Below are positions 38,372 to 40,781 of a stretch of DNA of 42,729 nucleotides, piece by piece. Location of the stretch: sequence record PQ589898.1; one strand, 5' to 3'. Source of the DNA: Escherichia phage Alux-21. Every line of letters starts with the position of its first letter. The stretch's first letter is position 1. A program made the translations under genes and the position numbers. Under the pieces are notes generated by a model. That model saw only the letters and a program-made list of their open reading frames with translations, searched no databases and was not told where the DNA came from.

Positions 38372-38466
38372 ACAACAAACATTGTTGCAATCATTCTACA
38401 TCATCGTATATCATTACCTTAACCGGGCGGAATACCTGCCCGGACTAATAACGAGGTAATGCCCAC

Positions 38467-39111
38467 ATGAACACATCAAATAAAACCCTGCTGCAAATAC
38501 TGGTTGAAGAACTGCCGAAACGTGGCGGCTGGCCGAAAGGTGCTGTAAAAATCCATCAAGACCATGACGGTGAAACCTGGGCGTGGTTAAATCATGATGG
38601 CACAGAACGGCTATTCACGCTGTACCAGGTGGCAAAAAACGCAAGGCAATTTTCCGAAGATGAAACCGAAGAAAACATGGTCACCCGCGACCAGTACGAA
38701 GCAGCACTGGCAGCAAGCAAAGCCGTTGTTGGTCGTAATGGCTGGATTGATTGGCATGGCGGTGAATGTCCGGTCGATAGTGACACAATTGTTGAAGTCA
38801 AATACCGGAACCCTAGCCCGTTTCAGTTTAATAATGACAGGGCTGGCGATTTTACATGGTCACAGGATGGCAACGCCGGTGACATCATCGCTTACCGAAT
38901 TGTGCATGGCTATACGGTCAAATCCAACGACGCACAGTTAGAAGCCGACCTGAATGACTGCATTGGCCAGGCGCAAAGCAATGACGATGCGCGTGATGAA
39001 ATTCTTTACGAACTGGCTAACTTTGCGGCCACTACAAAAACCAGTCTTGACATTGGTGTTGCCACAGAAATTGCAATTTGGCTTTCTGGCAAAGGTTATC
39101 GTAAACAATGA
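38467..39111 (+). CDS. hypothetical cargo protein (no recognisable domain)
   Basis: 214-aa ORF with SD GAGG, lower GC than tail genes, own upstream AT-rich region and downstream hairpin GCCCAT-N9-ATGGGC plus T-rich tract. Confidence 0.5.
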   Translation: MNTSNKTLLQILVEELPKRGGWPKGAVKIHQDHDGETWAWLNHDGTERLFTLYQVAKNARQFSEDETEENMVTRDQYEAALAASKAVVGRNGWIDWHGGECPVDSDTIVEVKYRNPSPFQFNNDRAGDFTWSQDGNAGDIIAYRIVHGYTVKSNDAQLEADLNDCIGQAQSNDDARDEILYELANFAATTKTSLDIGVATEIAIWLSGKGYRKQ

Positions 39112-39191
39112 TTGTCATAAAACGCGATCTGCCCATCATTATTGTATGGGCTTCATTTCTAATCATTTCATTTGTATTGGGGTTTATGTAA

Positions 39192-40067
39192 ATGGCTACT
39201 ATTGGACAACTCTACAAAGCAGGTGCCACCGAAGCAAAACCGCGTAAGGTGTTTTTCGTCCCGCTTGCTGAACTGTATGTGGAAGATGGCTACAACATCC
39301 GCGACGTGGACCAGGCGCACGTTGAAGAATTCCGCGATGCGTACCTGGCCGGTGAATATGTGCCGCCACTGACCGTGGAAGTGACGCAGCAGGGCATCAA
39401 GGTGATTGACGGCCACCACCGATTTGCCGGTGCCAAGATGGCCGCAGAAACCGGCCTGGAACTGCGCCTGGAAGTGAACGACATCACCGGCACCAGTGAG
39501 GCTGACAAAATCGCGCTGATGGTCACCAGCAGCCAGGGCAAGCCGCTGGAACCGCTGGAACGTGCCAAAGCCTATGCGCGCCTGAAAGCGCAGGGCTGGA
39601 CCAATGACGAGATAGCCAAGAAGGTGAAGCGCAGCCCGTCAGACGTGGCCAACATGCTGGCCCTGGCTGAATGCCCGGAACCCATCAAAGACATGGTGCG
39701 CGGCGGCCAGATGTCCTACGTGACCGCCACCGAACTGACCCGCCAGCACGGCACCGAAGCCGAAGCCGTGGCCGCACAGGCGCTGGAAGAAGCCAAAGCC
39801 GCTGGCAAGGATAAAGTAACAAAGAAATTCACCGAACCGAAGGCACCGAAAGCGCCGAAGGCCAAGCCGGAAGCCATCCAGCCACCGTTTGGCAAAGACA
39901 AGCTGACGCGCCTGGCTGACCTGGCTGTGCAAATCGAACTGGTTCACAGCGATGAACGCCTGGAAGATGCAGAACCTGACGAATCCATGACACTGCGCGC
40001 ACCTGCTGGCGTGGTTCGTGAATTCATGGCGCTGGTGGCTGACTACGTGGGCGGGGTGCCGGAATGA
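39192..40067 (+). CDS. ParB-like nuclease domain protein
   Basis: 291 aa; N-terminal ...YNIRDVDQAHVEEF...PPLTVEV...IKVIDGHHRFAGAKMA resembles ParB/Srx N-terminal domain; proline/lysine-rich linker (KAPKAPKAKPEAIQPP) and unknown C-terminal domain. Confidence 0.55.
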   Translation: MATIGQLYKAGATEAKPRKVFFVPLAELYVEDGYNIRDVDQAHVEEFRDAYLAGEYVPPLTVEVTQQGIKVIDGHHRFAGAKMAAETGLELRLEVNDITGTSEADKIALMVTSSQGKPLEPLERAKAYARLKAQGWTNDEIAKKVKRSPSDVANMLALAECPEPIKDMVRGGQMSYVTATELTRQHGTEAEAVAAQALEEAKAAGKDKVTKKFTEPKAPKAPKAKPEAIQPPFGKDKLTRLADLAVQIELVHSDERLEDAEPDESMTLRAPAGVVREFMALVADYVGGVPE

Positions 40068-40333
40068 AAGGCGAACTTAAAGCCGGTGGCCTGGCACTGA
40101 TCTATGGGTTGAAAGTACACCCTCAGCACAATGGGAAATGTGTAACCCTGTATCGAGTAGCGCAACCTAGATACAAGGATGAAGATGGCCAAATATGGTG
40201 GCGCGTTTACGGCCTGAAACCTGGCAACGAACTTTGTCAGATTAAAGCTGAAAACCTGCTGCCAATCGACGGCGACGATCACCAGGAACGTGACCAACTG
40301 GCCAAAGACAAACCCGCCGAACTGACGGCGTAA
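40064..40333 (+). CDS. hypothetical protein
   Basis: 89-aa ORF whose ATG overlaps ParB-like stop (ATGA), suggesting co-translation. Confidence 0.45.
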   Translation: MKGELKAGGLALIYGLKVHPQHNGKCVTLYRVAQPRYKDEDGQIWWRVYGLKPGNELCQIKAENLLPIDGDDHQERDQLAKDKPAELTA

Positions 40334-40342
40334 GTGGTAAGT

Positions 40343-40498
40343 GTGACTAACGAGAATTTCAGCTTTGAAGAATGGTTTTATTTCCTGCGCGACCACGCGC
40401 GAAAGAACGGCGGCGCTGCCAACTTTCCAGAAGAATGGCAGGACGATTTTGACAATGGCCTAACGCCGGAAGAAGCCTGGCGGAACGCCTGGGAATAA
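40343..40498 (+). CDS. small hypothetical protein (51 aa)
   Basis: GTG-initiated ORF VTNENFSFEEWFYFLRDHARKNGGAANFPEEWQDDFDNGLTPEEAWRNAWE; below ORF-track cutoff. Confidence 0.25.
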   Translation: MTNENFSFEEWFYFLRDHARKNGGAANFPEEWQDDFDNGLTPEEAWRNAWE

Positions 40499-40532
40499 AC
40501 CAACAGCCGTCACCTGGCGGCAAGGGGTAAGC

Positions 40533-40742
40533 GTGAAACTGACCAAAGACGTGAAAGAGGGTGCAAACCTGTGGTTGCTGGAAGCTAAGACAAAGGACGG
40601 TGGCGTAGTGCGCTGGATGCTTCAAACCAGCATTGAGCTTTTGCCGCTGGATGACCAGAAATCGCGCAACACTATAGCGCAAGATTTAATGAGGGCGCGC
40701 AGAGATTTGCGCACCCTGGCAGAACTGCCGCCACCGGCCTGA
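40533..40742 (+). CDS. hypothetical protein
   Basis: 69-aa ORF (GTG start) followed by strong terminator. Confidence 0.4.
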   Translation: MKLTKDVKEGANLWLLEAKTKDGGVVRWMLQTSIELLPLDDQKSRNTIAQDLMRARRDLRTLAELPPPA

Positions 40743-40751
40743 TAAACAACA

Positions 40752-40778
40752 GCCCGCCACTTCGGCGGGCTTTATGTT
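40752..40778 (+). terminator. rho-independent terminator after cargo locus
   Basis: GCCCGCC-ACTTC-GGCGGGC hairpin followed by TTTATGTT. Confidence 0.6.
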
Positions 40779-40781
40779 GGG

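Follow-up and report, generated by a model that had tools for sequence, protein, structure and literature searches.

The right end of Escherichia phage Alux-21 (sequence record PQ589898.1, a stretch of 42,729 nucleotides [nt] that we refer to as the window) carries five genes between the last tail gene, gpD, and a tRNA-Arg gene that adjoins an integrase gene. The second of these codes for an orphan ParB-like protein, around which the present account is built. The original prediction, made from the nucleotide letters alone, treated the region as the cargo of a P2-like phage, consisting of an unknown 214-amino-acid (214-aa) protein and an operon with a ParB nuclease domain, and considered it a candidate for host interaction, exclusion, or antidefense. 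Its structural outline holds: the five open reading frames (ORFs), all on the plus strand, lie where they had been placed and encode proteins of 214, 291, 89, 54 (51 from a GTG at 40343), and 69 aa; the stop codon of the ParB-like gene and the start codon of the 89-aa gene overlap in an ATGA; and the tRNA-Arg and integrase context, both of the listed hairpins, and the strong terminator were all located as described (Table 1).

Table 1. Features between gpD and the end of the integrase gene, in window coordinates
Feature	Position	Strand	Remarks
Conserved intergenic block after gpD	38378..38414	+	28-nt motif AACATTGTTGCAATCATTCTACATCATC at 38378-38405; promoter-like TTGCAA-N18-TATCAT at 38385-38414
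GC-rich hairpin, CCGGGCGG-loop-CTGCCCGG	38423..38443	+	Between promoter-like block and 214-aa gene; -16.1 kcal/mol, z -4.9
214-aa modular accessory protein	38467..39111	+	phrog_26870, 1.8e-84
Terminator-like hairpin, then T-rich tract	39131..39151	+	Between 214-aa and ParB-like genes; -10.7 kcal/mol, z -3.3
Orphan ParB-family protein, 291 aa	39192..40067	+	ParB N-terminal (Srx-like) domain, HTH_ParB, Lys/Pro-rich linker, ~50-aa C-terminal domain
89-aa protein, predicted SH3-like (KOW/Tudor-like) beta-barrel	40064..40333	+	ATGA-coupled to ParB-like gene
Small GC hairpin	40315..40330		3' end of 89-aa gene; terminator-like on minus strand; -8.2 kcal/mol, z -2.7
54-aa small gene	40334..40498	+	GTG start (51 aa from GTG 40343); phrog_519 C-terminal part, 1.4e-14
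69-aa last operon gene	40533..40742	+	AAGGGG Shine-Dalgarno six bases before GTG
Bidirectional intrinsic terminator	40751..40771		-19.7 kcal/mol, z -4.7
Phage tRNA-Arg(TCT)	40782..40858	-	ARAGORN; Rfam 70 bits
Probable attP region	40891-41147		Upstream of integrase; repeats ACC(A/G)TACCCTAAACC(A/G)TACCC at 40891-40923 and 41115-41147
Tyrosine integrase	41163..42374	+	Pfam Phage_integrase, Arm-DNA-bind_3

Gene order and conservation in Jilinvirus phages

Over the region of the ParB locus, Jilinvirus phages are 91 to 96% identical to the window at the DNA level, among them Escherichia phage HeidiAbel_Bas97 (HeidiAbel) and Salmonella phage PT1, and on these sequence matches we assign the window to Jilinvirus (Iiscvirinae) as a genome of that genus. 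Jilinvirus phages are small myoviruses with a P2-type tail module; the P2-like character that had been ascribed to the phage as a whole belongs to this module (GpU, X, and D) only. Gene order was compared across HeidiAbel, PT1, ECO1230-10, ECOO78, ep3, Arya, KA2-1, Serratia phage MQ-4, and metagenomic contigs. The succession of gpD, a gene for about 214 aa, the ParB-like gene, a gene for about 90 to 110 aa, and a slot for small ORFs was recovered in all 10 relatives examined, save that MQ-4 lacks the 214-aa gene, the remaining order being kept there too. ECOO78 and Arya have an additional gene between the ParB-like and 89-aa genes. Four of the syntenic phages (ECO1230-10, ECOO78, ep3, and Arya) are virulent isolates without an integrase; hence, the locus is not an island linked to lysogeny. 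Judging from these genome comparisons, the region is a conserved right-end module of Jilinvirus genomes and not an acquired island, and the idea of a cargo or lysogenic-conversion locus is contradicted by an order that persists in every Jilinvirus compared.

Conservation within the module is uneven. Among the close E. coli and Salmonella phages, the amino acid identity to the window is 96 to 99% for both gpD and the ParB-like protein, 53 to 78% for the 214-aa protein, and 38 to 60% for the 89-aa protein; the last two have conserved ends around an interior that is swapped or hypervariable. The DNA identity profile stands at 94 to 100% across the ParB-like gene, with partial or no alignment at 38500-39000 and 40064-40780, and the ParB-like gene is among the best-conserved genes between close relatives. 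Presence/absence variation between conserved flanks was seen for the slot at 40334-40742 and in part for the 214-aa gene, and not for the ParB-like and 89-aa genes. Because the slot and the flanking genes vary while the ParB-like gene and the gene order are conserved as core in the relatives, the cargo picture fits parts of the locus but not its center: a variable locus between conserved flanks is a fair description of the 214-aa gene, the 89-aa gene, and the slot, and it fails for the ParB-like gene. A GC content below that of the tail operon, which had been given for the whole locus, applies only to about 38200-39400 (0.44 to 0.50); the ParB-like gene is the most GC-rich part (0.59 to 0.63), and the remainder lies at 0.52 to 0.56.

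A megablast search with the ParB locus against 5,426 complete E. coli genomes returned zero matches, and no homolog of the cI-like repressor of HeidiAbel and PT1 was found in the window. For HeidiAbel, no lysogeny was observed by the authors of the BASEL collection (PMC11990801). In the window, an intact integrase is present without a cI-like repressor homolog, and at 3625-3896 the window resembles the virulent phages ECOO78 and ep3 (95% DNA identity to the ECOO78/ep3 type versus about 40%). In the BASEL comparison, some phages keep a seemingly intact integrase and cI, and in others these are deteriorated or absent (PMC11990801); the combination of an integrase without cI seen here may be new. 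The window is likewise scarcely or not at all similar in DNA to its four closest genomes at other hot spots (10000-12000, 13500-14000, 25500-31000, and 33500-34300), which the annotation of the relatives places behind the primase gene, within the lysis region and the tail fibers, and ahead of the tape-measure gene. The flanks of the ParB locus are, therefore, two of several mosaic regions in the window.

The orphan ParB-like protein and its homologs

The 291-aa protein gives a Pfam match to HTH_ParB (4e-13; HTH, helix-turn-helix) and a PHROG match to phrog_1033, “ParB-like partition protein” (1.8e-84), and Pfam ParBc stays below the reporting level. A profile of 25 family members compared with solved structures recovers Spo0J/ParB (1.7e-18) over the N-terminal domain and the HTH, as well as Noc and KorB. 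From these profile matches, the protein is assigned the ParB fold with the domain order given in Table 1. The “nuclease domain” under which it had first been described is an old Pfam name only: we found no evidence for a nuclease, the fold rests on the HTH_ParB and profile matches, and no metal-binding nuclease motif was identified in the protein. The accompanying claim that no family could be named beyond the ParB fold likewise does not stand, as all but one of the five proteins have PHROG matches (phrog_26870, phrog_1033, phrog_2529, and phrog_519), three of these families being of unknown function.

With ParB/Spo0J of the ParABS systems, the protein shares the architecture of an N-terminal domain plus HTH, and these proteins are also its best matches among solved structures. 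It differs from them in most of what defines a partition protein. A ParA-like ORF was found neither in the locus nor among the annotated genes of any relative, and the ParA-binding motif LG(R/K)GL is absent from the N terminus (MATIGQLYKAGATEAKPRKVFFVPL) and from the 25 aligned family members. The TIGR00180 score of 49.7 bits falls under the curated cutoff of 58.45. Box II reads GHHRFAG in place of the canonical GERRxRA and Box III reads TSSQG in place of ENLQR, so that the glutamates of Box II and Box III, which are the residues for hydrolysis of cytidine triphosphate (CTP), and the Box III asparagine are lost; the nucleotide-contacting arginines of canonical ParBs are retained as R37 in Box I and R77 in Box II. 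Across the aligned members, E31, G33, N35, R37, D73, G74, and R77 are invariant and H76 is nearly so. Nothing resembling parS repeats was found: the window has no multicopy palindromes (perfect, with arms of at least 7 and spacers of 0 to 4), and the half-site ATTGTTGC was counted 7 times where 4.1 +/- 2.2 were expected, which is not above chance; a single or degenerate site may nonetheless exist.

Several parallels are suggested by ParB-family proteins that have left partition. Orphan ParB-fold proteins on mobile elements are a recognized and mostly uncharacterized class with varied nucleoside triphosphate (NTP) preference (Kaljevic et al. 2025, PMC12704722). The members of this ParB-CTPase-fold class have in common with the Jilinvirus protein the ParB N-terminal fold, a retained GxxR arginine, a divergent or absent Box III, the lack of a ParA partner or ParA-binding motif, and their occurrence on phages, prophages, and plasmids; the Jilinvirus protein, unlike the enzyme and domain-of-unknown-function (DUF) fusions highlighted there for phages, keeps a canonical-looking HTH_ParB. 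By its sequence features it fits this class. A second parallel is the RK2 plasmid protein KorB, which belongs to the ParB family and works as a CTP-dependent sliding clamp that represses at long range and is locked by its small partner KorA (PMC11790492). Here, too, a ParB-family protein is not tied to ParA at the locus and is followed by a small cotranscribed protein, and solved KorB structures are detectable relatives; however, the KorB Pfam domain (PF08535) remains subthreshold (13.9 bits versus 22.3), the motifs for CTP binding are degenerate, repeated operators were not found, and the coupled partner is a predicted 89-aa SH3-like barrel, whereas that of KorB is a small HTH protein (KorA or TrbA). 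The third is offered by the phage ParB homologs that activate the thymine dioxygenases of phages known as 5mYOX (O'Toole et al. 2026, PMC13229309), which are similarly repurposed from segregation and work with the product of a neighboring gene. These lack a DNA-binding domain and adjoin dioxygenase and hypermodification genes, whereas the Jilinvirus protein has an HTH, and Pfam and PHROG matches near its locus include no dioxygenase, kinase, or transferase.

The subfamily is widespread. It was detected in 314 phage records, which include the virulent siphoviruses Vi II-E1 and Bas80/81, in enterobacterial prophages, and in 2,201 PLSDB plasmid records. In lambdoid prophages, a homolog with 50 to 58% identity is located between cII and the replication gene O (cI-cro-cII-[ParB]-O-P) and overlaps the start of O, and in Pseudomonas phage PPpW-3 the homolog lies between a helicase and a primase. 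Taken together, these contexts point to an early function that may be tied to replication or regulation. In MQ-4 and KA2-1 the ParB-like protein has diverged to about 50% identity, and homologs elsewhere occur without both the 214-aa and the 89-aa partners. The plasmid homologs are 25 to 38% identical and are common on large conjugative plasmids; that of the IncC plasmid pNDM-1_Dok01 (4872-5810) is itself an orphan, separate from the partition operon with ParA and KorB domains, and belongs to a long run of hypothetical genes, organized as an operon, ahead of a DNA methyltransferase gene. No functional study of this subfamily was found in the literature under Jerseyvirus, the lambdoid cII-O position, or antidefense.

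Neighboring genes, transcription signals, and the integrase end

The 214-aa protein is modular. An N-terminal alpha/beta domain is followed by a conserved linker (TRDQYEAALAASK), a small beta domain (GWIDWHGGECPV...DIIAYR), a further conserved linker (LEADLNDCIGQ), and a C-terminal helical hairpin. Its family is very extensive among phages and not covered by Pfam, with 806 close homologs, the best of which is only 69% identical, and 2,291 cluster representatives at an E value of ≤0.001, in which the central beta domain is repeated up to four times per protein. The modules are swapped among these homologs, which have differing N- and C-terminal parts, a DUF3310 C terminus included; a Pfam scan of 40 distant, longer homologs for fused domains gave only DUF3310 once and RHH_1 once. 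The domains occur also in strictly virulent phages. The AlphaFold2 (AF2) model (pLDDT 78.7, pTM 0.45) matched no fold in the PDB, and its matches in BFVD were almost all unnamed or uncharacterized phage proteins, with one named “SaV-like.” Since the gene is missing in MQ-4 and truncated in ep3, it is dispensable. Following PMC13229309, we considered whether the 214-aa protein might be a dioxygenase that depends on ParB and rejected this, as its predicted layout of domains is unlike the one expected for such an enzyme, it has no Pfam match, and HeidiAbel is sensitive to restriction.

Proteins of the 89-aa family combine a near-invariant N terminus (MKGELKAGGLAL) and C-terminal tail (LLPIDGDD...KDKPAELTA) with a hypervariable core. 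The protein is modeled as an SH3-like barrel of about 70 residues with a disordered acidic tail (pLDDT 78.7), and we predict with fair confidence a barrel of the KOW/Tudor type. The label “ATPase” or “putative ATPase” carried by its public homologs was rejected on the strength of this model and looks like a propagated annotation error. The ends of the gene are conserved even at the nucleotide level in MQ-4 and KA2-1, despite the divergence of their ParB-like proteins, and the small GC hairpin at its 3' end falls inside such a nucleotide-conserved block common to the genus.

The slot that follows houses a different small gene in most of the relatives compared: an Ogr/Delta zinc finger in MQ-4 (Pfam 1.8e-19), an endonuclease VII/HNH-like gene in KA2-1, and unrelated unknowns in others. 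The late activator of the window itself is encoded elsewhere (12482-12916, phrog_836). By tblastn, the 54-aa gene is present in 172 phage records from unrelated groups, among them Arya (87%), Ackermannviridae, Stx phages, and strictly virulent phages, and it is not found in HeidiAbel or PT1. Homologs of the 69-aa protein, in turn, occur only in integrase-bearing relatives, namely, MQ-4 (85%) and HeidiAbel and PT1 (about 39%), and it has no Pfam, PHROG, or PDB match. Searches of Pfam, NCBIfam, and PADLOC with the four proteins other than ParB gave nothing, the ParB-like protein had a single subthreshold PADLOC match confined to the HTH (E 0.0059, 14.6 bits), and a PDB sequence search with the 214-, 89-, 69-, and 54-aa proteins found nothing credible.

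The intergenic block after gpD is conserved in all eight aligned genomes, the distant Arya, KA2-1, and MQ-4 among them. Its promoter-like element matches the consensus at 9 of 12 positions, and a similar TTGCAA...TACAAT lies in the early region; in the control for the promoter scan, 2 such matches were found and 2.1 were expected by chance. The self-contained 214-aa unit with its own upstream signals in the original prediction therefore needs correction on this point, the promoter-like match being no better than chance, although the sequence itself is conserved genus-wide. From that conservation and the likeness to the early region, a promoter of its own is plausible for the locus. The 28-nt motif of this block recurs upstream of int, where it is split by about 80 nt (40968-40982 and 41063-41078), with an inverted repeat (41000-41053) in the insert. 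Each of the two copies overlaps a promoter-like TTGCAA hexamer, and a 15-nt exact repeat is present at the two promoter-like sites, 38378 and 40968; this repetition may reflect a common operator, a promoter duplication, or the scar of a recombination event.

The GC-rich hairpin upstream of the 214-aa gene covaries, with a compensatory G/C swap in KA2-1 and MQ-4 and a T-run after it in MQ-4, and may act as a leaky terminator for the tail operon or as a hairpin in the 5' part of an mRNA; a search for further copies of the hairpin palindrome CCGGGC-N9-GCCCGG found none. The hairpin 3' of the 214-aa gene is real, as compensatory changes in Arya and KA2-1 preserve its pairing. Between the tail operon and the locus there is no canonical terminator; hence, early expression from its own promoter and late expression by read-through are both possible. 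The terminator at the far end looks active on both strands and therefore also closes the convergent, minus-strand tRNA-Arg gene. A minimal start-stop ORF (ATG TAA, 39186-39194) abuts the start codon of the ParB-like gene (ATGTAAATG); this ORF is kept in the five closest phages and not in Arya, KA2-1, or MQ-4. Elsewhere in the window, the motif (T/G)GACAAACCCCA(A/C)(G/A)AAGA occurs five times on the plus strand (12841, 17110, 19849, 24151, and 31194), within late gene blocks or shortly ahead of them; one copy immediately follows a terminator and precedes the sheath gene by 90 nt. By position it is a candidate late-promoter or activator site, and there are no copies near the ParB locus.

Between the tandem repeats of the probable attP region lies CCGCTTAGAAGGCGG (40983-40997), the minus strand of which mimics the anticodon stem-loop of tRNA-Arg(UCU) and which resembles the phage's own tRNA at 40818-40831. 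It may be that the integrase targets the anticodon loop of a host tRNA-Arg gene, for which the phage tRNA would be a replacement. An Rfam scan of 37800-42729 recovered tRNAs only, among them a second one, missed by ARAGORN, on the plus strand at 42487-42560 (40.9 bits; gathering score, 29); its anticodon loop, CTCATAA, gives the anticodon CAT. The matching region of HeidiAbel is annotated as a hypothetical protein on the minus strand.

Possible roles of the locus

Taking these findings together, we infer, with about as much doubt as confidence, that the ParB-like protein is a core orphan ParB that would bind DNA in vivo through its HTH and work on the DNA of the phage in the lytic cycle, regulating or organizing transcription or replication, its neighbors being accessory genes that recombine around it. 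It would bind as a dimer through the ParB-type HTH, the N-terminal ParB/Srx-fold domain would serve as a switch for self-association or nucleotide binding, and the protein would control early transcription or replication on phage DNA in the manner of KorB or Noc and would not act in plasmid partition. The diversity of the neighbors would arise mainly by recombination at conserved linkers and termini, and their likely role would be interaction with variable host factors. Since the flanking genes are variable, the 214-aa gene is dispensable, and the contents of the slot differ, an accessory role in host interaction is plausible for them from sequence comparison. Several observations pull the other way. 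With Box II and Box III degenerate, the ParB-like protein may bind no nucleotide, and the strongly conserved DG(H/Q)HR could mark an enzymatic site rather than a switch. By its own control, the promoter scan gives the early promoter nothing beyond chance, and late read-through from the tail operon is equally possible in Jilinvirus. The constraint on the termini of the 89-aa gene could come from a DNA or RNA element or a recombination block and not from a protein interface. Finally, HeidiAbel, which has the same module, is reported to be very sensitive to restriction-modification systems (PMC11990801), so that the module gives no obvious broad protection of DNA.

The names given to the protein by PHROG and NCBI, and its arrangement of ParB N-terminal domain and HTH, would suit a centromere-binding partition protein that maintains a plasmid prophage. 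We regard this as hardly tenable in view of the missing ParA gene and ParA-binding motif, the low TIGR00180 score, the degenerate CTP motifs, and the lack of parS-like repeats in the window, to which are added the integrase and attP-like region and the presence of homologs in virulent phages and inside integrated lambdoid prophages. DNase or ATPase activity is on record for some ParB/Srx-fold proteins, and the N-terminal domain might, accordingly, be an enzyme, either a nuclease or an NTP-dependent DNA-processing factor acting on host DNA or replication intermediates. The invariance of ExGxNxR and DG(H/Q)HR in the face of lost CTPase residues, and the replication genes that neighbor the gene in other phages, speak for such an activity; yet a full ParB-type HTH is kept, the closest solved relatives are nonenzymatic clamps, and the protein has no identified metal-binding nuclease motif, which makes it distinctly improbable. 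It is also improbable that the whole locus is an acquired island for lysogenic conversion, superinfection exclusion, or defense at a prophage end. P2-like prophage ends carry slots for accessory genes, and P2 has Ogr. The Jilinvirus slot is comparable in its position downstream of gpU-gpX-gpD and in the Ogr/Delta protein that MQ-4 has there, as at the corresponding end of P2, and the adjoining tRNA gene and integrase, the lower GC content of the first kilobase, and the differences between relatives in the 214-aa gene and the slot would all agree with an island. The slot is nevertheless smaller than 0.5 kb, its genes are tiny and have no matches to defense systems, and its carriers are mostly virulent. 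For the locus as a whole, the gene order is shared with integrase-less virulent relatives, the ParB-like gene is almost unchanged among close relatives, PADLOC found no match, the window has no cI homolog, the E. coli genomes searched gave no megablast match, no lysogeny was seen for HeidiAbel (PMC11990801), and both the 214-aa domains and the 54-aa gene are found in strictly virulent phages.

Another possibility is that the ParB-like protein, its coupled 89-aa partner, and perhaps the 214-aa protein form a unit for antidefense or host takeover, in which the conserved ParB would be a platform and the hypervariable proteins would dock on it through their invariant termini and recognize host targets that vary. 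The ATGA coupling fits this, as does the persistence of invariant termini around a hypervariable core where ParB itself has diverged to half identity; the variability next to highly conserved flanks is of the kind expected in an arms race, relatives of the 214-aa protein carry DUF3310 and one model match is “SaV-like,” and phage ParB homologs are able to activate partner enzymes (PMC13229309). Against this, there is no homology to any known antidefense protein, the conservation of the termini at the nucleotide level would equally suit recombination blocks or a terminator, the extra gene in ECOO78 and Arya interrupts the pair, ParB homologs elsewhere do without both partners, and HeidiAbel remains very sensitive to restriction-modification; on balance, we think it rather unlikely. 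Still more speculatively, the 214-aa and 89-aa genes might be cassette-like specificity modules, whose conserved ends dock to ParB or another conserved phage component and whose swapped or hypervariable interiors recognize host targets, such as defense proteins. We give this little credence, but, if true, it would amount to a ParB-centered, recombination-diversified system for host takeover or antidefense common to the Jilinvirus phages.

Whether the favored reading, that of a DNA-binding core regulator among recombining accessory genes, or one of its rivals applies, the locus is an ordinary one for its genus, public phage genomes already contain it, in part with annotation, and its ParB-like protein belongs to a kind that is known but little understood. 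A specialist might follow up one feature only, the pairing of an almost invariant orphan ParB with two cassette-like neighbors. Phages and plasmids very commonly carry orphan ParB-fold proteins, almost none of which has been given a role. The Jilinvirus system is tractable, because HeidiAbel is a cultured phage of E. coli K-12 with the same module. If the target of this ParB and the dependence of its neighbors on it were known, a large class of proteins mislabeled as partition proteins could be better annotated, and it would become clear whether such loci affect host range.

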